A stretch of DNA of 55,428 nt, from assembly GCA_964509695.1 (NCBI GenBank), contig CAZDXN010000003.1, positions 1 to 55,428 of the forward strand, in the 5' to 3' direction. This DNA is from an uncultured Pseudomonadales bacterium. Its GTDB lineage: Bacteria > Patescibacteriota > Microgenomatia > UBA1400 > MFAQ01. Made by a program: the position numbers and the translations under genes. A model generated the notes under the pieces. That model saw only the letters and a program-made list of their open reading frames with translations, did not search any database and was not told the DNA's origin. Below, one piece after another: positions 1,653 to 40,861 of this stretch (position 1 is its first letter; each line of letters opens with the position of its first letter).

Positions 1653-1673
1653 AGGTATGATTTTACATCACTT

Positions 1674-2078
1674 TGTCATCGCGAGGAAATGAAATGACCG
1701 TGGCGATCCATATATAGCTCTCTCAAAACAAAATGTCGGTTTTATATGGTAATTCGCTATGTCATCCTGAACTTGTTTCAGGATCGATGCTGAAATGACC
1801 CTGAAATAAATTCAGGGTGACATTATTCAGCATGACATCTAGTTTTGAGGTTGCTATAGATTGTCATTCCGACCTCCGAGCCGGAATCTATCTGTATCAC
1901 CCCCGATCGAATACGATCTTCCCCCTCTTAAATTAAGAGGGGGTAAGGGGGTGATATGGATCCCGGATCCCCGAGGAAATACTCGGGACAGGCAAGTCCG
2001 GGATGACAGATGAATATACCTCACCCTTACGTCCCTCCCCTTGATAAGGGGAGGGAAAGAGGGAGAGGTGTGAGGGGG
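1674..2078. repeat. Nested palindromic repeat cluster upstream of mreB
   Basis: GTCATCGCGAG..GGCGATCC; GTCATCCTGAACTTGTTTCAGGATC..; 1862-2008 composite (near-identical to 54988-55130); CCCTCCCCTTGATAAGGGGAGGG element at ~2019-2075. Confidence 0.9.
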
Positions 2079-2096
2079 GCGTGTTAAAATGCAGCC

Positions 2097-3113
2097 ATGC
2101 GATTGAGATTGTCAAAAAGAGTGGGAATTGATCTGGGGACGGCCAACTGTCTGGTCTATGTCGTGGGTGAGGGAATTGTGATGGAAGAGCCGACGGTGGT
2201 AGCGGTTTCGCTGACGGACTCGAAGGTTTTGGCGGTGGGCAAGGAAGCGGAGGCGATGCTGGGGAGAACTCCCGGAAATATCAAGGCGAGCAAACCGATG
2301 CGGGATGGTGTGATCGCCGATTATGTCGTGACCGAGGCAATGATGAGGTATTTCCTGCGGAAGGTGGGAGCGGGCAACCAAATCTTCAAACCGGAGGTAA
2401 TGGTGTGCGTGCCGGCCGGTGTGACCCAGGTAGAAAGGCGCGCGGTCCTCTCGGCCACCATGAGTGCCGGGGCGAGGACAGCGTATTTGATTGAAGAACC
2501 CTTGGCGGCGGCGATTGGCGCTGGAGTGCCGATTGCGGAGGCCAGTGGAAATATGATTTTGGATATGGGGGGAGGTGCCAGTGAGGCGGCGGTTATTTCG
2601 CTCGGAGGAGTGGTCGCTTTCAAGAGTGTTAGAGTAGCTGGTAACAAAATAGATGAATCTATATCACGCTATGTCAGAAAGAAACATAATTTGGTGATTG
2701 GGGAGATTACGGCAGAAAGAATCAAAGTAAAAATTGGCAGTGCCACAAAACCGGTGAAGGAGGAGACGCTCGAAGTCACTGGCCGCGATAGCGTGACGGG
2801 ATTGCCCAAGTCAGTTGTGGTGACGTCCACGGACGTCTTTGTGGCGATTAGTGAACCGCTTTCACGGATTATCAATATGGTGAAGTCAGTGTTGGAAGAA
2901 GTGCCTCCAGAACTATCCAGTGACATCATTGATAAGGGGATTGTGATGAGCGGGGGGACGGCGACTTTGCGAAATTTTGACAAGCTTTTGACTGCCGAAA
3001 CAGGAGTTCCGGCCTTTGTGGCGGAGGATCCACTGAGGTGTGTAGTAAAAGGTACTGGGATAGCATTGGAAAATCTGGAGTTATATCGGCGAAGTGTAAC
3101 GGCGAATAAGTAA
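2097..3113 (+). CDS. mreB: Rod shape-determining protein MreB (copy 1)
   Basis: GIDLGTAN, PMRDGVIADY, IEEPLAAAIGAG, DMGGG, GNKID and GGTATLR actin-fold motifs. Confidence 0.97.
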   Translation: MRLRLSKRVGIDLGTANCLVYVVGEGIVMEEPTVVAVSLTDSKVLAVGKEAEAMLGRTPGNIKASKPMRDGVIADYVVTEAMMRYFLRKVGAGNQIFKPEVMVCVPAGVTQVERRAVLSATMSAGARTAYLIEEPLAAAIGAGVPIAEASGNMILDMGGGASEAAVISLGGVVAFKSVRVAGNKIDESISRYVRKKHNLVIGEITAERIKVKIGSATKPVKEETLEVTGRDSVTGLPKSVVVTSTDVFVAISEPLSRIINMVKSVLEEVPPELSSDIIDKGIVMSGGTATLRNFDKLLTAETGVPAFVAEDPLRCVVKGTGIALENLELYRRSVTANK

Positions 3114-3226
3114 GATTTCCTGTATATCAAGTTATTTTATGTCTATTATCAGTTGGTGAATTTGATTGCTATTTTGATAACTAGATTTGAATTTGAATAT
3201 TTACGAATGCGAAATATAGGGTTTAT

Positions 3227-3436
3227 TGGCGATCCATATAGATTGCCACATCGCGTACTCTCCCACGGGGATACGCGGGATCTGCGACTTGCAATGACGA
3301 GGCACCGTCATCGCGAGTGTATTCGCGTGGCGATCCATATAGATTGCTTCTCCCGCTAAGCGGGATCGCAATGACAGACCTCACCCTTACATCCCTCCCC
3401 TTGATAAGGGGAGGGAAAAGAGGGAGAGGTGTGAGA
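3227..3436. repeat. Palindromic repeat cluster (GTCATCGCGAG..GCGATCC/GATTGCTTC..GCAATGAC class plus CCCTCCCCTT class)
   Basis: AGATTGCTTCTCCCGCTAAGCGGGATCGCAATGAC also occurs at ~3762-3796 and 55135-55169; the CCCTCCCCTT element is identical to the one at 252-304. Confidence 0.9.
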
Positions 3437-3642
3437 GCGGTGATATGGGGAGGTACGGGGTTAAATTCAGTAGGAACCCCGTAGTCGATTCCCGCATACC
3501 ACTGGGGGTAGGGTAGGACGGTTTGCGGTAATTAAATTGTTGAGTAGGGGACGTAAGCCTAATTCGTGGCTACGTTGTTCGTGGAGCTTATCTTCGGAGA
3601 TTCTGGCTGTGCGTGGATACCCTTGCGGAGATGGACTTTGAC

Positions 3643-3796
3643 GTCATTGCGCCCGTCCGTCCTCTGGCGGAAGGAGCATTCGACGTGGCAATCTATGCAA
3701 ATAATCCTGGATCGTCACGCTACCGCTCGCGATGACGAGTTGACTCTTCGGAATGACATATAGATTGCTTCTCCCGCTTAGCGGGATCGAATGACA
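3643..3796. repeat. Palindromic repeat cluster (GTCATTGCG..GCAATCT / ..GCGATGAC class)
   Basis: GTCATTGCGCCC..GTGGCAATCTA, GGATCGTCACGCTACCGCTCGCGATGAC, AGATTGCTTCTCCCGCTTAGCGGGATCG. Confidence 0.85.
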
Positions 3797-4357
3797 AGGA
3801 GTGGTATTGGAGTTTTTTGTCATAATCAGAATATATCAGTTATTTGTATTGTATCGGTCTATTTACTTCTGACATTAGTTAAAAATTTATTTTCATAAAT
3901 ATATGTTTTGATAGAGTATATAGTTTCTGTCTAGTGATATTGATCATTGATTGCAGATTTTGTCTCGCGAAGCGAGATTTAGCTTTGATATTTGAGAACT
4001 TATTTTATTCGTAATTTACGATTTGATGCTGGAGAATTTAATTGTAGGAAGGAATATAGTATATTTATCATATTAGGTGACGGCCGTTCTATTAGAGGAT
4101 ATTGTTAAATATCTTATAGTGGTGATGATTTTTGCTTGTTGGTTGAGTAGAGTTGATTTTCGGACAGTTATTTCATGTAAGTGTCAGTAATCAGCGTGTG
4201 AAAACAGCCTAGGGAGTGAGTTTTCGGGATTGATCTATCGCTTAAAATAGGGAATTGGGTTGTTTAGCGGTTAGTGTACTCGAGTGATAGTTTTGAGGCT
4301 AAACGTTGATGGGGATAGGGATTCAAGATTTAGGATTCAGGATTCAGGAATTATGAG

Positions 4358-5224
4358 TTGCGTGTTCCTGATAAGATACTAGCATATATGGTGAAGAAAA
4401 TGGTTTTGGGGACGCGGGTGGATTTGGTCAGTCAGTCAGAGGCGGTGAATATGGTCTCCGGTTGGATTGAAGTCGGAGGCAAGACCAGAGTAGTAGCAAC
4501 GGCATATAGTGAATTCTTTGTGGCTGCGCTAGGCGACAAAGCCTTTAGAATGGCCCTAGAAGGCTCGGATTTGGTCACCCCTGATGGGATAGGGCCGCTG
4601 GCGGCAATCAGATACCAATTGCTCAGTGCTCAGTGCTCATGGACCATTTGTCATTTGTTAACTGGTTTTAGAGTTGGGGTGGATATTTTGAGAGGGCGGG
4701 TGGGTCAGCCGGTATCCGGATATTGGCTGTTTGAGACTTTGGTAGCGAAAGCGGCCAAGGAGGGCTGGTCGGTGTTCTTGCTGGGAGGATTTGGAGAGAC
4801 GGCGGAGAAGCTTGCACAAAAACTCGAAACTGAAAAAACTCGAAAACTCAAAGTAGAATATGAGGGGGGGGCGCGGAATGAGGCGGAGATGACTGGTGAG
4901 GCAAATGAGGTGGTGATTGAGAAGATAAACAAATTCAAGCCGGATCTGTTGTTTGTGGCCTACGGTCCGGTGAAGCAGGAGAAGTGGTTGGCGGAAAATA
5001 AAGGGAAGTTGAGGGTGAAGGTAGCGATGGGAGTAGGTGGGACGTTTGACGAGGCGCTGGGGTTGGTTCGGGAAGCCCCTGTTGCATTCTCCAAATATGG
5101 TCTAAAATGGTTTTGGCGGCTCCTCCAACAGCCGCAGCGATTGCCCCGTATATTCAAAGCTACCTTTGTGTTTGCTTGGTTGGTCTTTGTCGATTCGCTA
5201 AAAAATAAGAATTTACGAAACTAA
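4358..5224 (+). CDS. WecB/TagA/CpsF family glycosyltransferase (start may be ATG 4388)
   Basis: LVTPDGIG, VFLLGG, INKFKPDLLFVAYGPVKQEKW, MGVGGTFD and GLKWFWRLLQQPQR motifs; carries two short tandem-repeat inserts. Confidence 0.92.
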   Translation: MRVPDKILAYMVKKMVLGTRVDLVSQSEAVNMVSGWIEVGGKTRVVATAYSEFFVAALGDKAFRMALEGSDLVTPDGIGPLAAIRYQLLSAQCSWTICHLLTGFRVGVDILRGRVGQPVSGYWLFETLVAKAAKEGWSVFLLGGFGETAEKLAQKLETEKTRKLKVEYEGGARNEAEMTGEANEVVIEKINKFKPDLLFVAYGPVKQEKWLAENKGKLRVKVAMGVGGTFDEALGLVREAPVAFSKYGLKWFWRLLQQPQRLPRIFKATFVFAWLVFVDSLKNKNLRN

Positions 5225-5246
5225 GAAGTTAGGAATCTACGAATTT
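5207..5246. repeat. Degenerate 8-mer tandem array (AAGAATTT ACGAAACT AAGAAGTT AGGAATCT ACGAATTT)
   Basis: Period-8 array between convergent genes; same family as the array at 42397-42428. Confidence 0.75.
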
Positions 5247-5484
5247 ATTTGGAGATGGGGTTTATTCCGAGCATCCACAGGACGCTTTCTTTTTTGTAGC
5301 GACGGTCGCCGCGGGAGTTGATGCGGATGGCGGGGAGCTTGCCACGCTTGCCCCAGCGCTTGATGGTGAGGGTGGAAACGCGCAGAAGAGTGGCGACTTC
5401 GGAGACGGTCAGCAGGTCGGGGAGGTTGGCGAGATTGACTTCTTGCTTGCCAGCAGGCGGGTCTTTTTTTTCGTTATTGTCCAT
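5245..5484 (-). CDS. Helix-turn-helix DNA-binding protein (MerR/excisionase-like HTH_17)
   Basis: LLTVSEVATLLRVSTLTIKRWGKRGKLPAIRINSRGDRRY. Confidence 0.9.
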   Translation of the reverse strand: MDNNEKKDPPAGKQEVNLANLPDLLTVSEVATLLRVSTLTIKRWGKRGKLPAIRINSRGDRRYKKESVLWMLGINPISK

Positions 5485-5508
5485 ATCTGATATACAAGTT
5501 ATCAGATA
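5484..5508. promoter_or_regulatory. Inverted repeat (putative operator) over the HTH gene start
   Basis: TATCTGATA-N7-TATCAGATA perfect 9-bp inverted repeat between divergent genes. Confidence 0.5.
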
Positions 5509-5533
5509 GGTTATAGAGAGTCAATGGGGTAGA

Positions 5534-7642
5534 TTGAAGATGGGAGACATGTGGTTAAATGAGAGTATGTCAGTGGGTGATGAAAGAGATCCGGAAGTTA
5601 TACAGGTTGGTTCTGGTTTGGTGCGAGTTGAAGCGGGTTTGGTGTTTGATAAAGAAGCTGAATTAAGGAAGACGGTTCTGGCTGAATTGTTGCGCTTAAA
5701 AGTAGTCTCAATTGATGAAAGTCGATTACCTGGCGGCATTATCGTTGATAATCTTAATTTCTTTCGGGGTAAATCGATGGCGAAAGACTCGGATTCGGGT
5801 GAAGATTTGACTGTGTTTGAAGTAATGGAACGGGTCCCTGCGCCAATGAAAAACGGATTGGGAGGTCAAGACTCACAGAAAAATTACTATCACGTCTTTC
5901 GGGACCAGATGGTGGCGACGGAGGAGGATCTAAAGAATGGAGTTGGTGCGAGAGAGATGTTTTTTACCTTGAACGACGCTGCGGATTTGAAAAACCCTGG
6001 TCGATTGAGAGACTATAAGGGGAGGTTTTACTTACTTCTGTCAGAGTTGGGAGGAGAATTTGACGTGAGAAATAATTTTCAGCCGACCAAGAATGAGGGT
6101 TTCGATTCTGGAGTGGATTCTTTTGCGGCCAACGTTTTGGCGATGATATATATTTTGGGTGAAGGAGAACGTGATGAAGACGGGGCGCTTTGGGTAAATA
6201 AGACAAGTGGTGATAGTGCGGAAACACAGAAATTGTCCGGCAGCTGGTTGGCAAGAATGGGTTTTAAATCGTATAGTGGTTTGAAGTGGAGGGATCAACC
6301 GAGAGAGTTGATTGCCAGATACGGCAAAAGTATACCTAATGGAATGTTGAGTGCCGAGGATTTTTCCGACAGAACAAGAGAAAAAATGATCGTAGGCACT
6401 AACGGTCAATTGGTGGTTGAGAATACTAGGATATTTTTTGGACGCAATCGCCTGGGTTACCAAGCGGTCAAAATTTCTAGTGACGGAACGTATGTATTAT
6501 TGAGTCCTGCTGATGCAAAAGGCCAGAGGGCGGTTGACGGGGTGTTCAGAGCCGGTCGGGTGGGGGGAATAATAACGCGACCCAATGTGGTCGAGGGGAA
6601 AGTAATCGGTATGAGGGGGGGGAGTTATCAGGAACGAAAATTACAACCTAGGATAGTAATTCGGCGATATGACGGAGAAGGGAAGGTCCATGCTTGGAGG
6701 GTTGACAGTAAGGTTGCCGCTAGCGGACTACTGAAGCTAAGAGAACGTTTGAAGAAAATCGATCCTACGGTATTACCAAAATTGGATTCGTTACCGTATG
6801 AGAGGCAGCTTTTTTTACTTCACGGTTACATGCAGTTGAATGAGGTTGACAGAGGGAAGTTTGAGGGTGGTTTGGTCAGATGGTCCTCTACCCAGATTGA
6901 GGCAAAATCATATTTGGCTCAGTATAGCGGTTTGGCGACAGTGACCGAGGCGGGTCAAGTTGACGCCAGTTATTGTAAAACAGTCGGACTCTTGCGTAAC
7001 TTTCGACATGTGGTTGAGGGCGAGATAGGTGATGACAGCGAGCCACAAAATCGGTCGCTAATTGAGTTTATAGCTAGGATTACCGAGAGTGTGGCATTTC
7101 GGACGGGGACACTCTTAAGTAAGGTAACCGTTGAGAATGAAGAGGTGGTTCGGGCTGAAATGGATAAATTAAATGGTTTGCTATTGGCGATGGAGTCTTC
7201 GGTGGTGGATTTTGACAAAAAGAATGGATTGAGAAAGACAGCCATATTACGGGACGATAAGGGAGTTGTCTCTAGTATCACGGTTCATCAAAAATTTGGA
7301 TCTCAAGCTGGTGCGGATGAATTGTTTATTACATTTCGACCGGAAAGAAATGATGGCTTAGTAACCAAAGGGGGTGGGCATCCCAGAATTGGTATGACGT
7401 TTAGAAATACTACGGGGAGTTTTAATTTGCGAGTTGACCTAGACAAAAATGGTCTTTCGGTGGATGTTGGTAGTCATAGCGGTGAATTTGCCGGACAAAT
7501 GGCTAAGGCTGGCTTGACACACTATACATATGGAATTATTGACCCGGGTTATCAGAGCCTATTTGGTGCCTACGTTAAGAGGCTGGCTCAGATTTGGGGA
7601 GTTTCTGAATCCACGTGGACACGATCTCGCGGTGTTCAGTAG
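5534..7642 (+). CDS. Hypothetical protein (702 aa)
   Basis: Long uninterrupted ORF with normal amino-acid composition; no family recognised. Confidence 0.8.
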   Translation: MKMGDMWLNESMSVGDERDPEVIQVGSGLVRVEAGLVFDKEAELRKTVLAELLRLKVVSIDESRLPGGIIVDNLNFFRGKSMAKDSDSGEDLTVFEVMERVPAPMKNGLGGQDSQKNYYHVFRDQMVATEEDLKNGVGAREMFFTLNDAADLKNPGRLRDYKGRFYLLLSELGGEFDVRNNFQPTKNEGFDSGVDSFAANVLAMIYILGEGERDEDGALWVNKTSGDSAETQKLSGSWLARMGFKSYSGLKWRDQPRELIARYGKSIPNGMLSAEDFSDRTREKMIVGTNGQLVVENTRIFFGRNRLGYQAVKISSDGTYVLLSPADAKGQRAVDGVFRAGRVGGIITRPNVVEGKVIGMRGGSYQERKLQPRIVIRRYDGEGKVHAWRVDSKVAASGLLKLRERLKKIDPTVLPKLDSLPYERQLFLLHGYMQLNEVDRGKFEGGLVRWSSTQIEAKSYLAQYSGLATVTEAGQVDASYCKTVGLLRNFRHVVEGEIGDDSEPQNRSLIEFIARITESVAFRTGTLLSKVTVENEEVVRAEMDKLNGLLLAMESSVVDFDKKNGLRKTAILRDDKGVVSSITVHQKFGSQAGADELFITFRPERNDGLVTKGGGHPRIGMTFRNTTGSFNLRVDLDKNGLSVDVGSHSGEFAGQMAKAGLTHYTYGIIDPGYQSLFGAYVKRLAQIWGVSESTWTRSRGVQ

Positions 7643-21964: not shown

Positions 21965-22900
21965 TTAGAGGCTGGAGAGGTCAAGTTTTACGGATGGGGT
22001 TTGGTTGGCGGTAAGATAGGCAGTGGTGATTTTGGTCAAGCCGATTTCTTTGAGAAGTGCGGTGAGATTGCCGGTCAGTTCGTCAACCTTTTGACTGGTT
22101 TTGCCAAGGCTGACGTGGATGATGGGGAACTTCGGCTCGGTTTTGTAGGTAATCGTAGCCCCGGCGGAGAGCTGTTTGGCCCGGCCTTCTGGGTCGGCAG
22201 TGACTGTGCCGCTCTTGGGATTGGGCATCAGGCCTTTGGGGCCTAGAATCTTGGCGTAGCGAGCTAGTTTGGGCATGTCTGCCGGGGTAGCCAGAAGAAC
22301 ATCGAAGTTAAATTCATTGTTGTTTAGGGCGGTGACGGTTTTGTCGGAGAATATTTCGACGCGAACATTCTTGCCGGTAGAGAAGGGGGTTTTAACTTCA
22401 CCGCGAAGACCGGTGTCGATGACGTTTAGATGAAGGTCGATGGTTCTAGTTCCGCCGGCGAGGGAGATTAGCTTTTCGAGAGCGACTTTTGGAGCCAGAA
22501 CTTCATTACTCTTGATTTTTTTAGCGAGGATTTTGTAGCGCTTCGAGCGGCCGTAGATGTGGCTGGGGTACTTGGCGAAGTGGCTGGTGGAGATTACGGG
22601 TGCGTCATCCTCGCGAACGCGGGGATCCATACTATCTGTATAGATTCCCGATCGGGTCGGGAATGACAAAGTAGATTGCTTCGTGGGTACACTCCCTCCA
22701 GAGGCGGGCTTTGGCGCAATGACGGGGGAGTAGGTGACGTGAACTTTTTCCAGATCGGCATCGGAAAGGCCAAGGGCGAGGAGTTCGCCGTCAGTTTTGG
22801 CGGTGAGCTGTTCGGGCTTGACGCGCTTCTCACGAAGAACCTTAGCGATATTTTCCGGCAAATCTTGATATAGTTCTTTCCAATTCGTTCTAGTTGCCAT
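21965..22900 (-). CDS. rplA: 50S ribosomal protein L1 with a ~115-aa N-terminal extension
   Basis: RGEVKTPFSTGK, FDVLLATP, ILGPKGLMPNPKSGTV; directly downstream of rplK. Confidence 0.95.
   Translation of the reverse strand: MATRTNWKELYQDLPENIAKVLREKRVKPEQLTAKTDGELLALGLSDADLEKVHVTYSPVIAPKPASGGSVPTKQSTLSFPTRSGIYTDSMDPRVREDDAPVISTSHFAKYPSHIYGRSKRYKILAKKIKSNEVLAPKVALEKLISLAGGTRTIDLHLNVIDTGLRGEVKTPFSTGKNVRVEIFSDKTVTALNNNEFNFDVLLATPADMPKLARYAKILGPKGLMPNPKSGTVTADPEGRAKQLSAGATITYKTEPKFPIIHVSLGKTSQKVDELTGNLTALLKEIGLTKITTAYLTANQTPSVKLDLSSL
22604..22723. repeat. 120-bp palindromic elements in-frame inside rplA
   Basis: GTCATCCTCGCGAACGCGGGGATCCAT..TAGATTCCCGATCGGGTCGGGAATGACA plus AGATTGCTTCGTG..GCGCAATGAC. 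Confidence 0.85.
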
Positions 22901-27354: not shown

Positions 27355-28068
27355 ATGGCGCGAGGAAATGGGAGGGAACACCAACAGAGGAGACCAGAGC
27401 GAGAGAATTACCATGGTGTTTGGCAGGGAGGAGGGGGGACTTATGATGCCGCAAAGATAGAAGAGAGGCGAGCGAGAGCGCGGGTCATGGCGCGAAATAA
27501 TACTCCCGAGACTGAGGCTATAAATGAAGAAAGCACTCGGGCGGTGGTGGAGGTATTGCGCCGGAAGGATCTGTTTCCTTGGATAGAATCGGTGGAGCTG
27601 GAGGAGGATCGATTGGGGGATGATGACTGGGTTAGGAAGACAGATGCCTATGTGAACATTGCTCCGGAATTTGGTAGGTTGGGTTTGCTTGATCAGTATC
27701 GGATTCAGATTAAGTCGGGTTGGAGCGATCTTTCAGGATTGGGAAATAAAAATATCAAAAAATTACTTTCTTTGACTAGCAAAGAATGGCGGGAATTGGG
27801 CTTGGTAATTTTGTTTGGCCAGGCGACCTCGGAGGCCATTGCCGCCAGTTTTTGTGATCAAATGATAAATTACATGGAAATAGCCGGAATTAGAAATGCC
27901 CGACAGGAATTCTTCAGCCAGCAAACGCCAGACCTGCAGAAAATAATGGTTCAATATGAAGCCTTGGATATTGCCGGACGCGATTGGGCGGTGCTTTTGT
28001 CTTGGATTACAGGGAATCCCAGAAGAGTGGAGAGAACCCAAGGGGGCGGTCAGGTCGTCTTTTTGTAA
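27355..28068 (+). CDS. Hypothetical protein, PD-(D/E)XK nuclease-like fold
   Basis: E.STRAVVEVL, DD..RKTD and IQIKS motif order; TAAAAT is 6 nt before the ATG. Confidence 0.65.
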   Translation: MARGNGREHQQRRPERENYHGVWQGGGGTYDAAKIEERRARARVMARNNTPETEAINEESTRAVVEVLRRKDLFPWIESVELEEDRLGDDDWVRKTDAYVNIAPEFGRLGLLDQYRIQIKSGWSDLSGLGNKNIKKLLSLTSKEWRELGLVILFGQATSEAIAASFCDQMINYMEIAGIRNARQEFFSQQTPDLQKIMVQYEALDIAGRDWAVLLSWITGNPRRVERTQGGGQVVFL

Positions 28069-29093
28069 TTGGCAGCTAGTTGGCCGCAGGCGGCGTTGAT
28101 GTCCGTGCCGAAGTCTTGGCGGAGGGTGTGATGGATTTTGTTTTGGGTGAGAACAGCTTGGAATTTCTCAACGACAGAATTAGTTGGCTTTTGGAAGGCG
28201 GTTAAAGTGTTGCCGTTATTGTATCTAATGAGGTTGACGTGGAGGAGGCGACGGCGGTCTGGGGTAGTGCAGACGAGGTTGGCAAGTGCGGTGGCGTGTC
28301 TGACGCTGTCATTGACATCTTTGAGGAGGATGTAGGCGAGGAAGACTTTGCGGTTGGTGACGGCCAGATGCTGGTCGATGGCGGCCATGACCTTCTCGAT
28401 GGGGTAGGCGGTGGTGATGGGCATGAGTTTGGCGCGTTCATCATTGAAGGGGTTGTGGAGGGAGAAGGCGAGATTGACGTTGGGGTAGTCGGCTGTGAGT
28501 CTCTCGATGCCCGGAATGATGCCAACAGTGGAAATGGATAAGTGACGTGGGGAGAGGCCGAGGAGGTCTTTGTTCGTCATCAGGTCGATGGCGGCGAAGG
28601 TATTGGCAGGATTGGAGAAAGGCTCGCCCATGCCCATGAAGATAATTGAGTCGACGGGTAGGCCATTTTTCAGAAAGTAGAGGACTTGGTCGAGAATTTC
28701 GTCGGCGGTGAGGTTTTTCCGAAAGCCGATGGCACCGGTGGCGCAGAAGAGGCAGCCGAGGGCACAGCCGGATTGGGTGGAGATGCAGAGGGAGTGGTGA
28801 ATACCGGATTTGAGTTTGTAGGAGAGTCGGACCGATTCGATTTGGTGATGGTCGGCAGTTTCAAAGAGGACTTTGTGGGCTTGGTCACCGCGGGTTTCGC
28901 GGACCAATTTTAGAGTGAGAATATCATCACCAAGGGTGTTAATTATTTGCTCTTTGAGATCTTTGGGAAGGTTAGATATTTGGCTGTAGCGGCTAATTTT
29001 GGCGGAAAAAATTGCCTCCTTTATTTGTTCGAAACGGAATTTGGGTTGATTGTTTTCGGTGAGAATGGATTGAATGGTGTCAAGTCTGGTCAT
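28050..29093 (-). CDS. rlmN: RlmN/Cfr family radical-SAM 23S rRNA A2503 methyltransferase, Cfr-like
   Basis: CISTQSGCALGCLFCATG, MGMGEP and AACGQL; start MTRLD (29093). Confidence 0.93.
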   Translation of the reverse strand: MTRLDTIQSILTENNQPKFRFEQIKEAIFSAKISRYSQISNLPKDLKEQIINTLGDDILTLKLVRETRGDQAHKVLFETADHHQIESVRLSYKLKSGIHHSLCISTQSGCALGCLFCATGAIGFRKNLTADEILDQVLYFLKNGLPVDSIIFMGMGEPFSNPANTFAAIDLMTNKDLLGLSPRHLSISTVGIIPGIERLTADYPNVNLAFSLHNPFNDERAKLMPITTAYPIEKVMAAIDQHLAVTNRKVFLAYILLKDVNDSVRHATALANLVCTTPDRRRLLHVNLIRYNNGNTLTAFQKPTNSVVEKFQAVLTQNKIHHTLRQDFGTDINAACGQLAANYKKTT

Positions 29094-29116
29094 ATTTATT
29101 TGCGGCTGAATTTGGT

Positions 29117-29150
29117 TCTCAGCCCCGAGCCTTTCGGTTCGGGGCTGAGA
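29117..29150 (-). promoter_or_regulatory. 15-bp hairpin in the lipoprotein to methyltransferase intergenic region
   Basis: TCTCAGCCCCGAACC-GAAA-GGCTCGGGGCTGAGA on the minus strand; no U-tract. Confidence 0.5.
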
Positions 29151-29157
29151 GGTGCTC

Positions 29158-29469
29158 CTATTTTTGGGGAGCTTTTCCCTCATGGAGGTGGAGGTCCATG
29201 TATGAAGCGGGCCTAATTTCCACAAGGTATTCAACCTGGTCTGCGGGCACGTCGTAGTACCAGGTAAAATACGACGCACTTGCGCTAAAATCTCCATCGA
29301 CGGTGCTAACCGTCAGTTCTGCACGGTTCCCTTCGGCGGCCCAGGTCTTGATGACCAACTCCTTGGTCGTCGGGTCTGCCTGGTGAACTATGCTGTTGCT
29401 GCTGGAGCAGGCCGCCGCCAGCAGGGCGCCGATTACAACAACTAACAGAAAACTAATTTTTGTGCGCAT
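29158..29469 (-). CDS. Small lipoprotein
   Basis: AAGGAGG SD; signal peptide ending in a LAAAC lipobox. Confidence 0.8.
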   Translation of the reverse strand: MRTKISFLLVVVIGALLAAACSSSNSIVHQADPTTKELVIKTWAAEGNRAELTVSTVDGDFSASASYFTWYYDVPADQVEYLVEIRPASYMDLHLHEGKAPQK

Positions 29470-30086: not shown

Positions 30087-31259
30087 ATGGCAATTAGACA
30101 TCTTGACGAGGCGGTTATCTCTCATTTCGAGAAATACAAGGAAGTTTTGGTGTTGTTGGGGGCTCGCCAGGTAGGCAAAACGACTTTGGTCAGGAAAATT
30201 TTTCCACGGGCGAATTATTTGATCGTTGATAATGAGCCAATAAAAAGCGCTTTGGAGCGTTATGATCCGGCAGTTTACAAACAACTGCTAGATACCAGCA
30301 ATGATTTTGTGGTGGTGGACGAGATTCACAAGTTGAGCGATCCCGGGCGGGCGGCTAAGATTTTTTTTGATCAGTTGCCCCAATATAAGTTAATTATCAC
30401 GGGGTCTTCGGCCTTTAACATCAAGAACAAAGCTTCGGAAAGTTTGGCGGGGAGGAAAATCGATTATCATCTTTACCAGTTGACTCTTTCCGAGTATCTA
30501 ACTCAAAGCGGATTGGAAAAAGAGTTGTCGTTTGGACAAATGGAGAGGTTGGTTGGCGGACGGAAACCAGAAAAGGTGATTAGGCCATATGACCACAAAG
30601 GGATACTAGATAATATTTTATTGTTCGGCCTTTATCCCGCCATGCTTTCACATTCGCGAGATACAACTTACCTGACCAATTTGATTGATAGTGTGGTGTT
30701 TAATGACTTAGTTGAATTATCACTATTGGAAAATAAAAGCGCCGCTCTTTCACTACTGAAGTTGCTGGCGTATCAGATTGGTTCGTTGGTAAATTATGCC
30801 GAACTGGCGTCCAAATTGGGGATTGGAGCCAAAACAGTGAGGCGGTATATTGAACTTTTTGAGCAGAGTTTCCTTATCTTTACCCTTAGGCCTTATTCAT
30901 CGAGAAAAAGGGATGAGATTACCAAAATGCCGAAGGTATATTTCTATGATTTGGGTTTAAGGAATGCCTTGATAAACAATTTCGAACCCTTGGGCGTTCG
31001 TGGAGACGCAGGGGCGTTGTTTGAGAATTTTGTGGTATCGGAATCATTGAAATACAATTATTATGGTAATTATGGCTATAGCTTTAACTATTGGCGGACG
31101 AAAAGTGGTTCGGAGGTGGACTTGATTTTGAGTAAACCAGGATCAGATTTACTGGCGGTTGAGATAAAAAATCAATCACGACGGGTCAATCAAGCCTTTT
31201 TGAGCCGCTACCCCGGGTCAAAATTGACGGTTATTTCCAAAGAGAATTATTGGGCCTAA
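30087..31259 (+). CDS. AAA_14 ATPase with DUF4143 C-terminal domain
   Basis: GARQVGKTT, VVDEIH, ITGSS, KVYFYDLG, LFENFV, YWRTKSGSEVD and VEIK. Confidence 0.93.
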   Translation: MAIRHLDEAVISHFEKYKEVLVLLGARQVGKTTLVRKIFPRANYLIVDNEPIKSALERYDPAVYKQLLDTSNDFVVVDEIHKLSDPGRAAKIFFDQLPQYKLIITGSSAFNIKNKASESLAGRKIDYHLYQLTLSEYLTQSGLEKELSFGQMERLVGGRKPEKVIRPYDHKGILDNILLFGLYPAMLSHSRDTTYLTNLIDSVVFNDLVELSLLENKSAALSLLKLLAYQIGSLVNYAELASKLGIGAKTVRRYIELFEQSFLIFTLRPYSSRKRDEITKMPKVYFYDLGLRNALINNFEPLGVRGDAGALFENFVVSESLKYNYYGNYGYSFNYWRTKSGSEVDLILSKPGSDLLAVEIKNQSRRVNQAFLSRYPGSKLTVISKENYWA

Positions 31260-33346
31260 AATGATGTGGTGATTCCTAGTGCTTTAGCAGTTGATTTGAC
31301 CGCTTGCATTTTTTCCTCTAAGGTTAATTCTTTTGAATTTGGTCTGTATTTTCCGACGAAAGCATGAATTTTATGGACCCTGACCGTTCCCGCCGCCTCG
31401 TCTATTTTCCGTATGTCTTGCTTGGCTTGAATATTGATGTCTTGTTCGATCGATTTAATTTTCCTGACCGCTTCATTGCTAATTGACCTTGCGAAAGCGA
31501 CGACGTTAGGCCAGCGACGACCCCTGACTACTACGGGGTTGAGAGTGATGACTAAATTTGGGTTCTTATATCTAGCTTGATAGTCTGGCACTATCTCGTC
31601 AATTAAGGCAATCATTCGATTTAATTTCTCTGACGATACATTGTCGTCATAGTCGTCCCTATAAAATAATTTATCTAATCCGACGAACGCAACACCCTCA
31701 TCGAGATCTGCGGCATATTTGGACCAGACAATAGCCATTCTTTTTACTTGGTCGGGTAGGTTGGTTTTACCGATCTCTTCGGGGGTAAATGGAGAGGATC
31801 TATAATCGACAAGATATTCCCCAACGCGTTGATGACACTTGAGGGCCCAAGAAAGATAGCCGACCTGAGTGAGACCAAGTTCAGTCTCAGCCGGAGTTAC
31901 GCACAGAAAACTTTTGCATTCAGTGTAGGTATCGATGCTCCCCGATTGATCACCATATACTTGGAAGGAAAATCCATAATACTCCCTTGATGAACTCGAA
32001 AACATGGAGGTAGCGGACATGGTATTGCCAAGGTACTGGGCGAGAATTAGATGTTTCAGGCCTTTTTTCCCGATGCCGGGATTGAAGTGGAGCGTCATGC
32101 CCTTGTATTTGTAGAAATCGATTAGGCCTAGGTCTTGCATTAGTCTCACGAAGGCAACCATGGTTTCCGGGTGATAGAAGGGGCCGGGGGCGATTTCAGC
32201 GCAGCCGTCCCCGCCACCACCCCAGTGAATTCCTAAGGTTTCGGTCACCACGGCAAAACCTTCCGGAATGGCGGCGGTCATTGTCTCCGGATTGGATGGG
32301 TATTCTATTTCATTGCCTTGGGTAGCAGCGATACCCATGGTGATTATGGGAAGATCGGTGTTTTCATCTTGAGCGATTTTTTTGGCAAGTAATGACTGTT
32401 CTCTAACATCGGACTGAAGTAAATCGCGTTTTGAGAGGGAAATTTCCCTAAGAGCATCGTAGCCCAACCTTTTTCTGATGGCGCCAATGGTAAGGAATTT
32501 TCCCGCAGGATCCCGTTGATTATAGCGGGCCTTAGCTTCTGGCGACATTTGTTTGATCAGTAATTTTGAAAGGGAAGTGGTGTTTAATGGAAGTCCCCCG
32601 ACGGTTAGGCAAAGATTGCGAAAGAGCAGATAACGGTCACCCCAATTTTGGGAAGAGCCTCGGAATGATTCATAAACCTCAACTGCCTCTGGATGTTTTC
32701 CAAAAACGTCCTGGTGACGGAGGATGAGTTTGAGATCTTCGATTGGTAGTTCAAGGAGTGATTTGGCCGACTCTACGGTCCAGGTGGGATTATCAAGGAA
32801 GGCGCGGAAAGAATCGATAGTATTACGAGGGTCGCCGATAAAAGAACCAAATATCTTTTTAATTTTCTCAGCGATGTTGGCTGGATTTCCCCCAAAGATT
32901 GAGTAGAGTCTTTTATCTTTGACGATGACGCCAATAACGTGGACATAGCGGTTAAAGCGATTAGAATATCTCTCTGGATTTTTGCAAATTTTTACAAATT
33001 CTGAGATGGCAAGGTTAATTTGGGTAAGTTGGTCGGTCGAATTTTTTAACAGTTCCCCGAGAGCTCTAGCTGTTTCTACCGCGTCAACGTAACCATAAGC
33101 GGAGCCAAAGAACCATTCTTGTTGTCCTGGGTCGGTAATCATTTTTCCCAGACAAAACAGGTCGTGATTGCTGAGCGTTTCCAGATATGTACTTAGCGTC
33201 AGATCGTTGAACCCTTTTCGAAGGAATATTCCGGCTCTGGCTAGTCTGGTGTTCTGGGCCTCAACCCTCCTGTGTGCACTTTGTTGAAAATCACTACTAA
33301 GTACTTCTCGTGACCAATTCCTGAATCTTTCAAATGAGTCTGGCAT
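31256..33346 (-). CDS. Hypothetical protein (696 aa) with a putative COOH-NH2 ligase (amidoligase/GCS-fold) domain
   Basis: GNEIE, DGCAEIAPGP, TLHFN and YTECKSF in the order expected for the superfamily; by eye only. Confidence 0.6.
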   Translation of the reverse strand: MPDSFERFRNWSREVLSSDFQQSAHRRVEAQNTRLARAGIFLRKGFNDLTLSTYLETLSNHDLFCLGKMITDPGQQEWFFGSAYGYVDAVETARALGELLKNSTDQLTQINLAISEFVKICKNPERYSNRFNRYVHVIGVIVKDKRLYSIFGGNPANIAEKIKKIFGSFIGDPRNTIDSFRAFLDNPTWTVESAKSLLELPIEDLKLILRHQDVFGKHPEAVEVYESFRGSSQNWGDRYLLFRNLCLTVGGLPLNTTSLSKLLIKQMSPEAKARYNQRDPAGKFLTIGAIRKRLGYDALREISLSKRDLLQSDVREQSLLAKKIAQDENTDLPIITMGIAATQGNEIEYPSNPETMTAAIPEGFAVVTETLGIHWGGGGDGCAEIAPGPFYHPETMVAFVRLMQDLGLIDFYKYKGMTLHFNPGIGKKGLKHLILAQYLGNTMSATSMFSSSSREYYGFSFQVYGDQSGSIDTYTECKSFLCVTPAETELGLTQVGYLSWALKCHQRVGEYLVDYRSSPFTPEEIGKTNLPDQVKRMAIVWSKYAADLDEGVAFVGLDKLFYRDDYDDNVSSEKLNRMIALIDEIVPDYQARYKNPNLVITLNPVVVRGRRWPNVVAFARSISNEAVRKIKSIEQDINIQAKQDIRKIDEAAGTVRVHKIHAFVGKYRPNSKELTLEEKMQAVKSTAKALGITTSF

Positions 33347-33368
33347 ATTAAGTTGTTTTCAAATAGAT

Positions 33369-33406
33369 AAAAAAATTGCCGGAAGAGACAGGGCGTCTCT
33401 TCCGGC
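33369..33406 (-). terminator. Intrinsic terminator
   Basis: GCCGGAAGAGAC-N5-GTCTCTTCCGGC followed by AATTTTTTT on the minus strand. Confidence 0.85.
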
Positions 33407-33426
33407 TGGGTCGTGCCGGCGGTGAA

Positions 33427-33519
33427 CTAATCGGGGCCTTCCGGCTGGTCGGCGGTGACGGGTTCAAGGAGTTTTTCCTCTTCCTCCACGTCGACGGCCG
33501 GGGCGCTGGGGTCGGTCAT
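33427..33519 (-). CDS. Unannotated 30-aa acidic peptide MTDPSAPAVDVEEEEKLLEPVTADQPEGPD
   Basis: Strong SD AGGAGGGAGGTGA, upstream TTGACA and a downstream terminator. Confidence 0.65.
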   Translation of the reverse strand: MTDPSAPAVDVEEEEKLLEPVTADQPEGPD

Positions 33520-33594
33520 TTGATTCTTCACCTCCCTCCTGTTTAAGATTACAGCCTGAGTATTGTCTCATATTATTTACTTATGTCAATAGGA

Positions 33595-33855
33595 TTAGGT
33601 CAGGCTAGAGTGGGATTTGAGCCAGGAGGTACGTTTATTTCCATCAGTAAATGAATGATTCATGCACAACGAATGGAGTAGGGCGGCGGCTTTGGAAAAA
33701 ATGGTGGGATACATATCTTTTCCACCATAGGTCGCCTTGGGCCGCTCGACGGCTGAGTGGAGGAGGGAGAAGTCCCGAACTGAGGCAATTGATCCTGCCT
33801 TGAGGATGATCTCTTGGTGAATGGTATAAACGTCGTCAATGTTTAGCCAGTTCAT
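33595..33855 (-). pseudogene. Truncated Fic/Doc (death-on-curing) toxin
   Basis: LLHSAVERP..KAAALL..NHSFTDGNKRT, then a stop 10 codons later; the usual C-terminal helices are missing. Confidence 0.75.
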
Positions 33856-34093
33856 CGAGAATTTCTGAGTCCTCGTCTAATGTTTGGGCGAGCCAATTTT
33901 TGAATTCAGCATCCGAGGCTGTTTTTTTGACGGTTTGGACGGGAATTGATGTTTCGATGATCAGGCGGGCGGCATCCGGGTCTGCCTTGATGACGACTGA
34001 TTGACCGGATTTCAGGTCGAGCTTCCTTAATAGCTCCTTGGGAATGGCGACGACCGAGCTATTGCCGGCTTGAAAAATCTTTTGAGTGTACAT
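33836..34093 (-). CDS. AbrB/MazE family antitoxin
   Basis: QKIFQAGNSSVVAIPKELLRKLDLKSGQSV. Confidence 0.9.
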   Translation of the reverse strand: MYTQKIFQAGNSSVVAIPKELLRKLDLKSGQSVVIKADPDAARLIIETSIPVQTVKKTASDAEFKNWLAQTLDEDSEILDELAKH

Positions 34094-34179: not shown

Positions 34180-34253
34180 TGGCAGGGGTGGAAGGTGTCG
34201 AACCTTCGTCACAGGTTTTGGAGACCCGTATTCTACCGTTGAACTACACCCCT
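34180..34253 (-). tRNA. tRNA-Trp: tRNA-Trp (CCA)
   Basis: AGGGGTGTAGTTCAACGGTAGAATACGGGTCTCCAAAACCTGTGACGAAGGTTCGACACCTTCCACCCCTGCCA. Confidence 0.96.
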
Positions 34254-38781: not shown

Positions 38782-39396
38782 TCAAGAGAGGTTGAGATAG
38801 AGGTTGTCGCCGATGACGGTGGATTTGATATCGGAGAAGCCAGTTTGTTTGGCTAGATTAGCCAGTTCGTCGGCGGTGAAGGAATAAAAATCGCGGGAGG
38901 GACCGGAGTGGAAGGGAATTGACAGGTGTTTTGAGTTGGTGCGAAAACGGTCGAACTTGGGTTGGTCCAGACGCCAGACAGAAATGAGACAGGAGCCAGT
39001 TGAATTGAGATGCTGCTTTATATTTCGGAGTAGTTTGATGTGGTCGTCTGGGGAGGGGAGATGATGAAAGACGGCGAGAGCGGCGACAAAATCGAATTGC
39101 CCGAGTTCGTCCCAAATGGACTGGTCAAGAATGTCAGCCAGAATGAATTTGCCTACAGGGTCAGACCCCGTAGCTTCTTTGATGAGAACGGCGCTGAAAT
39201 CGAGGCCGGTGTAGGTGACGGTTTTGGGTAGGGCCGTTAGGAGGACGCCATTGCCGCAGCCCAGATCGAGGACGGAGGCGTTTGATTCGAGTTTGGGAAG
39301 CAGAGGAATCACCTCCGGCGACAATTTCTGTCTGGTTGCGCTAAAATTAAGGCCGATTTGGTCGTACGTAGAGGCGATTTTTTGTGAATCAAACAT
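38782..39396 (-). CDS. Class I SAM-dependent methyltransferase
   Basis: VLDLGCGNG, YTGLDFS, FDFVAALAVFHH; TATAAT is 7 nt before ATG 39396. Confidence 0.92.
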   Translation of the reverse strand: MFDSQKIASTYDQIGLNFSATRQKLSPEVIPLLPKLESNASVLDLGCGNGVLLTALPKTVTYTGLDFSAVLIKEATGSDPVGKFILADILDQSIWDELGQFDFVAALAVFHHLPSPDDHIKLLRNIKQHLNSTGSCLISVWRLDQPKFDRFRTNSKHLSIPFHSGPSRDFYSFTADELANLAKQTGFSDIKSTVIGDNLYLNLS

Positions 39397-40861
39397 GAAA
39401 CATATTATAAAGCCAGTGATAAAGCCGGGGCGGTCGATGTCCGGGGTGACGCCGCTGGCGGCGATGATGAAGCCGTTCAATTGTCCGGGGGAGTGTATCT
39501 ACTGCCCGCTGGAGTTAAACATGCCCAAGAGCTACCTTTCGGACGAACCGGCGGCTCAGAGGGCGAAGAAACTGAATTTTGACGCCAGGGCCCAGATCTC
39601 CCAGCGGTTGGAACAACTGAAGATGAACGGCCATCCGACGGACAAGCTGGAGATTATCGTGGTTGGGGGAACGTACTCGGCTTACCCGACCGATTACAAA
39701 ATTTGGTTTATTGGCGAGATTTATCGAGCCGCAAACGAAACAAAAAGACCTCTCCCTCTTCTCCCCCAATTACCTCACCCCACCCCTCCCCTTGATAAGG
39801 GGAGGGAGAAGAGGGAGAGGTGTGAGTGGGAAGAGAAGGTTTTGGCTGAAATAAAAATAAATGAAACTGCCAAACAGAGAATCGTAGCTCTTTCTGTAGA
39901 GACTAGACCTGATTGGGTGACTGAGGCTGAAGTGCGACTACTGCGAAGGCTAGGAGTGACGAAGGTCCAGCTGGGAGTACAGGCGATTGATGAAGAAATC
40001 AGTCGGATCACCAAGCGGGGGCACGGACAAGCCGAAGTGGCCGAGGCGACCAGACTCTTGCGGAATGCGGGGATGAAGATTTGCTATCACATCATGCCGA
40101 ATCTACCCGGAAGTGATCCGAAGAAAGATGTCGAGATGGCAAAACTAATCTATACCGACCCCCGGTTCATGCCAGACTACGTCAAGCTTTATCCCTGTAT
40201 GGTGATCAAGGGAACGGCCTTGTATCGACTGTGGCAGAAGGGGCAATTCAAAACCTATGACGATGAAACCTTGAAGAAGGTCCTCAAGGAAATCAGCGCC
40301 ATTACTCCCGAGTGGGTCAGAGTCGACCGGCTGATACGGGACATCTCAAAAGGTTGGGTGGGGGCAGGAAGCGTCAAAACGAACATGAGACAGGAAGTAG
40401 AACGGGAGTTGATTGCCGAGGGGAGACCTTGTCGGTGTATTAGATGTAGAGAAATTGGAGCAGGAAGTTACGAAGATACGAATTTAGAATTTAAGGCGAT
40501 TGAATTAGCAACAATTGGGGGGAGGGAAGTGTTTTTTAGTTACGAGAATGAACACAAATTGTTTGCACTCCTTCGCCTGCGACTGCCTGACCCTTCAGAG
40601 AAGATGTTGTTTCCGGAATTAAAAGAGGCGGCGATCGTTCGGGAGGTTCATTCTTATGGTCAGGCGGTGCCGCTGTCGACCCGAAGAGAAGGCAAATCTC
40701 AACACCAAGGTTTGGGGCGGCTTTTGATGGAGAAGGCCGAGGAGGAAGCGGTCAAAAACGGGTACAAAAAGTTGGCGGTCATTGCCGCCGTTGGGACGCG
40801 GGAGTACTACAAAAAATTGGGCTATGTCTTGGAAGGCTTATATATGGTGAAGACGTTCTAG
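39395..40861 (+). CDS. elp3: Elp3 family tRNA U34 acetyltransferase (radical SAM plus GNAT)
   Basis: CPGECIYCP, GHPTDKLE, SVETRPDW, VQLGVQ, RVDRLIRD, CRCIRCRE, REVHSYG and QHQGLG; palindromic insert at 39749-39826. Confidence 0.94.
   Translation: MKHIIKPVIKPGRSMSGVTPLAAMMKPFNCPGECIYCPLELNMPKSYLSDEPAAQRAKKLNFDARAQISQRLEQLKMNGHPTDKLEIIVVGGTYSAYPTDYKIWFIGEIYRAANETKRPLPLLPQLPHPTPPLDKGREKRERCEWEEKVLAEIKINETAKQRIVALSVETRPDWVTEAEVRLLRRLGVTKVQLGVQAIDEEISRITKRGHGQAEVAEATRLLRNAGMKICYHIMPNLPGSDPKKDVEMAKLIYTDPRFMPDYVKLYPCMVIKGTALYRLWQKGQFKTYDDETLKKVLKEISAITPEWVRVDRLIRDISKGWVGAGSVKTNMRQEVERELIAEGRPCRCIRCREIGAGSYEDTNLEFKAIELATIGGREVFFSYENEHKLFALLRLRLPDPSEKMLFPELKEAAIVREVHSYGQAVPLSTRREGKSQHQGLGRLLMEKAEEEAVKNGYKKLAVIAAVGTREYYKKLGYVLEGLYMVKTF

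Follow-up and report, generated by a model that had tools for sequence, protein, structure and literature searches.

A 55,428-nucleotide stretch of contig CAZDXN010000003.1 (the window; coordinates are counted from its first letter) carries a two-part module that is conserved in Patescibacteria, the candidate phyla radiation (CPR). A gene for a short acidic peptide is followed, across a hairpin, by a gene for a large protein that was examined as a putative ligase. The large protein most likely represents a new family of the glutamine synthetase/glutamate-cysteine ligase (GS/GCS)-fold superfamily of carboxylate-amine ligases, with Amidoligase_2 as its nearest relative. The module probably constitutes a new system for peptide modification or peptide tagging. 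Chances are about even that the peptide is itself the carboxylate substrate of the ligase, with a role like that of a ribosomally synthesised and post-translationally modified peptide (RiPP), a scaffold or a tag. All features of the module, from the promoter to the large gene, lie on the minus strand:

33562-33589 (-): module promoter, TTGACA (33589-33584), a 16-nt spacer and a TG-extended GACAAT (33567-33562), with 10 of 12 consensus matches
33529-33554 (-): stem-loop in the 5' untranslated region (5' UTR), CTGT (33554-33551) with ACAG (33542-33539), abutting the Shine-Dalgarno sequence (SD); read from the sequence
33540-33529 (-): SD, AGGAGGGAGGTG, directly 3' of the small CTGT/ACAG stem
33427-33519 (-): small open reading frame (ORF) of 30 amino acids (aa) plus stop, MTDPSAPAVDVEEEEKLLEPVTADQPEGPD; ATG at 33519, stop codon at 33429-33427
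33368-33406 (-): intrinsic terminator or attenuator, a 13-bp stem GCCGGAAGAGACG/TGTCTCTTCCGGC (33406-33378) with eight GC pairs, then AATTTTTTTA
31256-33346 (-): large gene, 696 aa, putative ATP-dependent carboxylate-amine ligase; ATG at 33346

The peptide gene and its linkage to the ligase gene

An earlier note on this DNA, made from the letters alone, had proposed the small ORF as an unannotated gene of 30 codons. Its translation is exactly as that note gave it, and the ORF recurs at related loci. MTDPSAPAVDVEEEEKLLEPVTADQPEGPD contains 10 acidic residues, one basic residue and five prolines, and the peptide is Pro-rich, very acidic and probably disordered. GC content at third codon positions (GC3) was 0.77 in this ORF compared to an overall GC of 0.48 for the locus; across loci, small-ORF GC3 ranged from 0.62 to 0.77 against a locus GC of 43-53%. 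The peptides of loci L001 and L005 are identical at 27 of 27 residues, and their genes differ by six nucleotides, all at the third codon position. Between the small ORFs of L004 and L005 there were four synonymous differences and one non-synonymous difference. Length differences between copies of the gene are in-frame insertions or deletions, and peptide positions distant from the C-terminus (PG[D], V[DE] and EEE) show purifying selection. Because the indels keep the frame and the third-position changes are synonymous, the small ORF is, on this pattern of substitution, a real gene that is translated and under selection. It is present in a single copy at each locus, and no second copy of the peptide was found in the window or at any locus examined. 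The region was also considered as a non-coding RNA; no Rfam family was detected at gathering score, the sole sub-threshold match was a meaningless miRNA (E 0.054), and this candidate was rejected.

Relatives of the large protein were then used to assess the pairing. In a search of 5.8e9 proteins, the close homologues numbered only nine. Profile searching of 1.84 billion cluster representatives yielded 77 relatives, most of them ~20% identical and aligning only over the C-terminal 350 residues (from ~residue 320). The earlier note had suggested searching for small acidic ORFs beside homologues, and held that its proposal would fall if none were ever found. Such an ORF was present upstream of the ligase gene in 12 of the 13 loci that could be assessed, including those of relatives only ~20% identical. 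The order of small acidic ORF, hairpin and ligase was seen in all nine close loci (the window, L001-L007 and L009) and in three of the four distant ones (L014, L016 and L038), where the enzymes are ~20% identical. In each of these three distant loci the peptide gene also has a TTGACA promoter and a strong SD, and a hairpin comes after it. The upstream peptides were as follows:

L001: MAHNPGDEPKVDLEEEVPTTASQPEPPDA
L002 and L011: MKMGPSDGAEVEELEEELVEPIEAETPEPPDD
L003: MKMAPGATAEVEIEEEELLDEPIDAETPEPPD
L004: MAHNPGDEPKVDPEEEKEPTTASQPEPPD
L005: MAHNPGDEPKVDLEEEPTTASQPEPPD
L006: MKMDPGDEPKVEEVEETVPTQAPTPEPPDA
L007 and L008: ...DRPEPPDD, partial (contig end)
L009 and L012: MTILAPGDEAEVEIEEEEPLEPEDAEPPEPPD
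L014 (protein P0012): small ORF of 61 aa, C-terminal ...TPRPEPRDRA
L016 (protein P0040): MFNPDEMEMDDELEAEDPQVDEAAEPEETLGE, C-terminal ...AAEPEETLGE
L038 (protein P0024): small ORF of 45 aa, C-terminal ...VAPRPEPR
L015 (protein P0016): no small ORF directly upstream; a divergent rpmG lies there

Peptides from the nine close loci share the pattern V[DE]xEEE...PE[PG]PD. The only features shared by all peptides are overall acidity and a P-E dipeptide located 5-9 residues before the C-terminus. The C-termini themselves were EGPD, PPD, PPDA, PPDD, PRDRA, PEPR and TLGE, with no GG and no fixed last residue. An 85-aa acidic ORF farther upstream at L015 (4452-4709) was considered as a displaced homologue of the L014 peptide; the N-terminal likeness of ILEELAGG to ILELVGG is faint (BLASTP E = 12) and the candidate was not supported.

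Other neighbours varied from locus to locus and included LemA/M48/ClpB, SecE-NusG, an RRM protein, PolX, an M3 peptidase and FtsJ, among others. Since these surroundings differ among loci, the conserved unit consists of the peptide gene and the ligase gene or genes. At three loci a single peptide gene was followed by three tandem ligase paralogues of ~682, 659 and 695 aa (L001 526-6667, L004 868-6143, L006 ~920-7048), and the catalytic residues were kept in all three paralogues of these loci.

Promoter, hairpins and predicted expression

The module promoter, a strong one, had the top consensus score (a tie) in the 3.4 kb scanned, where no other site carried an upstream TG. The same layout, TTGACA...TATGnGACAAT, was seen in L001, L003-L006 and L012, and TTGACA promoters were present in L014 and L016. 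The SD upstream of the small ORF, described in the earlier note as very strong, was confirmed at 33540-33529. A boxA-like leader had been described there as well, and this element was rejected: the boxA-like letters form the loop of a covarying 5' stem and vary between loci, and the conserved element is the stem-loop abutting the SD. The position of the stem is kept with compensatory changes (CTGTAAA/TTTACAG in L002 and L003, CAGTA/TACTG in L001 and CTCAG/CTGAG in L016), and it would act as an mRNA stabiliser.

The small ORF was also said to have its own terminator, and a 13-bp stem followed by a T-run (AATTTTTTT) was indeed found after it. Folded alone, the window hairpin gave -22.7 kcal/mol. 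A strong hairpin of about -20 to -25 kcal/mol lies 3' of the peptide stop codon in nearly every locus; the exception is L038, where the computed stem after the peptide gene is much weaker (-3.7 kcal/mol). The stem covaries between loci: CCGG/CCGG is replaced by CCAG/CTGG, GAGAC/GTCTC by GAGGC/GCCTC and GAAGAG/CTCTTC by GATGAG/CTCATC. In most loci 6-8 consecutive T residues follow the hairpin; no such run was seen in L003, and those of L014 and L016 are weak.

The large gene starts 22 nt past the end of the T-run (ATG at 33346), as the earlier note had reported, and this gap contains no promoter-like site and no evident SD. No recognisable SD for the ligase gene was found in the window (33347-33368) or in L002 (589-663); GAGGA or AAGGA was present in L001, L004 and L006. 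These results support the peptide and ligase genes as one transcription unit with a terminator between them, in which the ligase gene would be transcribed by read-through alone because the 22-nt gap holds no promoter of its own. From this architecture, read-through would yield much peptide and little enzyme. The missing SD in the window and L002, together with the terminator, therefore predicts very low enzyme synthesis relative to peptide. A search of sequencing runs for the locus returned four DNA runs, all from groundwater, and no RNA runs that contain it.

A further short element, ATCTAT(TT), was noted just past the T-run (33361-33368, minus strand). It is kept in L001, L002, L004-L007 and L014 (CAATCTATTTAC), and could be a processing site, a piece of the translation initiation region of the ligase gene or a protein-binding site.

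A short ORF, a strong terminator and a promoterless gene are also the parts of an attenuator. The small ORF could accordingly be read as a cis-regulatory leader peptide, functionless in itself, in which pausing at the Glu run or at the Pro-rich PEPPD end controls the terminator. PPD is a known EF-P-dependent pause motif, the hairpin begins 10-14 nt past the stop codon in L002 and L003, and the Glu codons lie ahead of a gene whose product has a fold that commonly works on glutamate. However, no conserved antiterminator was found when the loci were folded without the 3' arm of the hairpin: the freed 5' arm was unpaired in L002, showed 3-4 nt of pairing in L001, L004 and L005 and had inconsistent partners elsewhere. 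Across loci the stop-to-hairpin distance is 10-23 nt, mostly beyond a terminating ribosome, and the window peptide has GPD and not PPD. Selection acting far from the C-terminus, and a motif that persists at ~20% enzyme identity, are atypical of classical leader peptides, and in L003 the peptide is intact although the T-run is lacking. We therefore consider a leader peptide unlikely.

Predicted structure and family of the large protein

The large protein (P0001) was modelled with AlphaFold2 (AF2) from an alignment of 71 sequences, with a mean pLDDT of 92.7. A model built from 9 sequences, in which core pLDDT was <50 and no useful fold matches were obtained, was replaced by this one. Three regions were distinguished:

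32357-33346 (-): N-terminal all-alpha domain, ~residues 1-330; helices H18-H327, pLDDT mostly >85
31814-32344 (-): catalytic core, ~residues 335-511, six beta strands; G344-x-E346-x-E348, D380-G-C-x-E384, H420-x-N422 and E476-x-K478
31256-31813 (-): C-terminal helical region, residues 512-696 plus stop; motifs VPDY..R and WPN.VAFAR

Structural matches of the N-terminal domain were uninformative, consisting of helical repeats and tape-measure proteins, and its sequence is variable across the wider family. The C-terminal region is conserved along with the core, with alignments extending to ~profile position 660.

The four motifs that the earlier note had listed are all present in the large protein: GNEIE (344-348), DGCAEIAPGP (380-389), TLHFN (418-422) and YTECKSF (474-480). 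G344, E346, E348, G372, E384 and H420 were invariant in the 71 sequences, and N422, E476, K478, PGPF (387-390) and N614 were conserved in at least 90% of them. The core strands of the model span residues 343-350, 373-376, 382-387, 417-423, 463-467 and 474-482. The invariant and near-invariant residues fall on successive strands (343-350, 382-387, 417-423 and 474-482) in the order ExE...E...HxH...ExR, with two deviations from the GS/GCS pattern: HxN in place of HxH and ExK in place of ExR.

Foldseek comparison with the PDB gave two YbdK-type carboxylate-amine ligases as the best matches, 1tt4 (E 0.06, probability 0.89) and 1r8g (E 0.13, probability 0.51). Among the top 30 matches in BFVD there were eight phage entries named 'amidoligase' (E 0.035-0.65, probability 0.12-0.90), six of them with a probability of at least 0.5; the other top-30 matches were mostly tape-measure and long helical proteins that matched the helical domains. 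The probable assignment to the ligase superfamily is based on these YbdK and phage amidoligase fold matches together with the near-invariant motif residues in the 71 relatives.

No Pfam family was significant for the large protein or its 71 relatives, and the Amidoligase_2 (PF12224) hidden Markov model (HMM) had no match in any of the 71 members at E up to 10. A lone GCS match among these members (Pfam, E up to 10), at E 0.018, was dismissed as noise. The large protein had no match in NCBIfam, PADLOC or PHROGs. Searches of the PDB with phmmer and hmmsearch returned no ligase and no PafA/Dop, the matches being designed helical repeats that aligned with the N-terminal domain only, and tblastn of the catalytic core against phages and plasmids found no match. 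For comparison, profiles were built from 11 GCS2 proteins and from 10 phage Amidoligase_2 proteins. Under permissive hhalign settings the register with the phage Amidoligase_2 profile paired GxExE with GxExE, HWGGGGDGCAEIAPGP with W....DGSLR.G.E.....P, HFN with HvH and ECK with EFR. As judged by these sequence comparisons, the large protein falls outside PF12224, PF04107 and the PafA/Dop family.

Several results weigh against placing the large protein in the superfamily. The hhalign alignment with the GCS2 profile was not significant (E 0.052, across 18 irrelevant columns), and neither was that with the Amidoligase_2 profile (E 0.012), in which only the H...GxExE stretch aligned confidently. 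In hmmsearch with the GCS2 and phage Amidoligase_2 HMMs, the family scored no better than shuffled decoys. The Foldseek E-values (0.035-0.65) are weak, the query having been the whole 696-aa model and the alignments largely helical noise. The earlier note had taken the protein for a putative GS/GCS-fold amidoligase; the residue order of the protein and its fold matches to YbdK and phage amidoligases make this likely, and membership in Amidoligase_2 or GCS2 by sequence profile was not upheld.

These same results could be taken to mean that the two genes are unrelated neighbours and that the large protein is not a ligase, since sequence profiles assign no family and the structural matches are individually non-significant. 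Such an explanation is very improbable. The pair is kept in 12 of 13 loci while its surroundings change, invariant acidic and His residues occur in GS/GCS order on predicted strands, and two independent structure libraries (PDB and BFVD) point to the same enzyme class.

Proposed function, related systems and genomic setting

In the mechanism that we propose, the ligase would bind the peptide, and ATP would convert one peptide carboxylate to an acyl-phosphate. Candidate reactive carboxylates are the Glu of the invariant P-E motif and a near-terminal Asp. The ligase would then join the activated carboxylate to an external amine, for which amino acids, polyamines and lysines of proteins are the possible donors. 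Since no Lys, Ser or Thr is conserved in the peptides, internal cyclisation is unlikely, and a strict C-terminal alpha-carboxylate mechanism is disfavoured because the last residue varies (D, DA, DD, RA, R, E). The three tandem paralogues would fit successive additions, or a ligase/de-ligase set as with PafA/Dop.

Some observations speak against a substrate role for the peptide in a module of this kind. The distant locus L015 has no small ORF immediately upstream of its ligase gene. With a C-terminus that varies among the peptides, the reactive group cannot be narrowed to one. The related loci do not consistently encode a protease, an exporter or a RiPP recognition element (RRE). In some lineages the proposed leaky terminator may be only a stabilising or processing hairpin, since L003 lacks the T-run and L014 and L016 show only a weak one.

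The peptide could also be a partner of the enzyme without being its substrate, that is, an antitoxin-like inhibitor, an activator or an overproduced small subunit, with the enzyme acting on some other substrate. Antitoxins are typically small, acidic and encoded upstream. The peptide gene is likewise small, acidic and upstream, a PhD/Doc pair and a DUF4143 ATPase neighbour the module in the window, and strict co-occurrence with a predicted excess of peptide would suit a neutralising or regulatory role. We nevertheless regard a non-substrate partner as quite unlikely. Three tandem paralogues per peptide gene, each bearing an active site, are unlike a toxin-antitoxin (TA) pair, and PADLOC gave no match. 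Four divergent loci sit in a housekeeping neighbourhood (tRNA-Trp, rpmG, secE-nusG-rplKA) and not in mobile contexts. TA pairs are normally translationally coupled, whereas here a terminator splits the pair.

With the peptide taken as the substrate, pupylation is a close comparison. In GS, glutamate-cysteine ligase and PafA, ATP phosphorylates a Glu carboxylate and the acyl group is passed to an amine. The substrate of PafA is the disordered peptide Pup, and in corynebacteria pup lies immediately before pafA; the tag ends in Gly-Gly-Gln/Glu, and the side chain of the C-terminal Glu is the ligation site (PMC3511204). The module is similar in that a short, acidic, probably disordered ribosomal peptide is encoded beside a putative carboxylate-amine ligase of the GS superfamily, with paralogous enzymes in one locus. 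It differs in peptide length (27-32 aa, compared to ~64 for Pup) and in the ligase, which has 696 aa with a 330-aa helical domain before the core, whereas PafA has its GS-like domain first and then a 70-aa C-domain. The module ligase has no sequence or Pfam relation to PafA/Dop, and its hosts are Patescibacteria and not Actinobacteria.

The earlier note had drawn a parallel to Pup and PafA. As a special case of the substrate role, Patescibacteria would own a ubiquitin- or Pup-like tagging system, independent of pupylation, that joins a carboxylate of the P-E...D peptide tail to lysines of target proteins. The partners are of the same kind, namely an acidic, probably disordered peptide and a ligase of predicted GS fold, in the gene order of pup and pafA (PMC3511204). 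The lack of an internal nucleophile in the peptides would call for an amine from outside, and the extra paralogues, as further ligases or de-ligases, could parallel PafA/Dop. Targets could include the translation apparatus, because the module often lies beside rpmG or the secE-nusG-rplKA cluster. However, the C-termini are variable and lack GG[QE], no PafA/Dop (Pup_ligase) signature was detected, Pup is twice as long as the peptide, and no proteasome or Mpa/ARC ATPase was found in the flanks within the window or in the 13 related loci. The parallel was not sustained, and a true Pup-like tag appears improbable. A ClpB-like ATPase gene three genes from the module was seen in L001 alone and is not conserved.

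Amidoligase_2 (PF12224) 'COOH-NH2 ligases' of phages and conjugative elements are predicted to act in peptide synthesis or modification, in the account of Iyer et al. (2009, Mol Biosyst 5:1636) as relayed in PMC3511204. Members of this family gave the best BFVD structural matches to the module ligase, and share with it the motif order H...GxExE, W..DG[SC]..E..P, HxH/N, ExR/K and a compact core of ~170 aa. In contrast to the phage family, the module ligase lacks the R....FC and Y...N motifs, has Asn for the second His and Lys for Arg, and carries large flanking helical domains. The phage genes lie beside genes for GATase, ATP-grasp and gamma-glutamyl-cyclotransferase proteins, not beside a peptide gene. 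YbdK/GCS2 proteins (1r8g, 1tt4) supplied the top two PDB matches and follow the same ExE...E...HxH...ExR logic. They differ in that the motif spacing is much shorter in the module ligase and in that YbdK uses free amino acids and has no partner peptide.

A hairpin between precursor and enzyme genes is found in lanthipeptide operons. The module resembles RiPP and scaffold-peptide systems in that a short precursor gene lies beside, and is co-transcribed with, an enzyme gene, and in that the peptide would be expressed far above the adjacent ATP-dependent enzyme by means of an intergenic hairpin. The proposed activation of a peptide carboxylate by ATP as an acyl-phosphate is a further likeness. 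The enzyme, however, is GS-like and not ATP-grasp- or LanB-like and has no Pfam domain, the peptide has no Cys/Ser/Thr-rich core, and the cluster holds no RRE and no conserved leader protease or exporter. A further scaffold-peptide system is the PEARL-dependent pathway, in which the scaffold peptide is extended at its C-terminus (bioRxiv 10.1101/2024.03.12.584671). Literature searches returned nothing about the module. The module resembles peptide-plus-ligase systems in its working and belongs to no known one.

CPR genomes are tiny and full of genes of unknown function. The pair described here is conserved at ~20% identity and apparently strongly expressed, yet searches of Pfam, NCBIfam, PADLOC, PHROGs and PDB sequences all miss it. 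If the peptide is the substrate, the new family would join PafA, the ATP-grasp graspetide ligases, the PEARLs and the lasso cyclases as ATP-dependent ligases that act on ribosomal peptides, and would be the first ribosomal-peptide ligase system assigned to CPR bacteria. The outcome could be a novel chemistry of RiPPs or scaffold peptides, or else protein tagging by peptides, independently invented for a third time.

The window module is flanked by tRNA-Trp (34180-34253) on one side and by the NusG-L11-L1 genes (25812-21965) on the other, with the PhD/Doc pair and the DUF4143 ATPase inserted around it. In L002 the module abuts SecE-NusG-L11-L1 (2610-5850), and rpmG adjoins it in L015 (4712-4912) and L038 (2462-2647). 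Because the tRNA-Trp/rpmG/secE-nusG-rplK-rplA neighbourhood recurs in very divergent members, these results suggest that the module is anciently and vertically inherited rather than mobile. The recurrent neighbourhood alternatively hints at a link to the translation apparatus.

Other genes were noted near the module. The PhD/MazE-type antitoxin gene (33836-34093, minus strand) overlaps a short Doc/Fic toxin gene of 86 aa (33595-33855, minus strand); the two genes stop shortly before the peptide promoter and look like a TA pair that was inserted between tRNA-Trp and the peptide gene. Processing of bacteriocin leaders is a role of C39 peptidases, and a Peptidase_C39_2 gene was found within 3 kb of the module in three independent loci only (L003 4549-5100, L015 3645-4313 and L038 1-320). 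None adjoins the window module, and its occurrence elsewhere may be a coincidence of CPR genomes. The window also encodes an Elp3-like protein (radical SAM, Radical_SAM_C and GNAT; 39215-40861, plus strand) and, on the ligase strand, a second radical-SAM protein (28050-29297, minus strand) whose gene is the second one downstream of the ligase gene. Beside the module in other loci, neither of them is conserved. A 96-nt tRNA-Leu(aag) called by ARAGORN at 22369-22464 (plus strand), inside the L1 gene (21965-22900, minus strand), is probably a false positive because Rfam does not detect it.

Where a habitat was described (ENA, JGI and sequencing runs), the sources were groundwater metagenomes, and several contigs name the Hainich site; the other loci stem from Logan or NCBI records that give no habitat. 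One homologous contig carries the title 'Patescibacteria group bacterium'. A 5.5-kb contig, CAYGRQ010000044.1 (L010), holds a ligase fragment 74% identical to the window protein in a metagenome-assembled genome labelled 'uncultured Pseudomonadales'. This label is probably a binning error, as all other sources point to Patescibacteria or groundwater.

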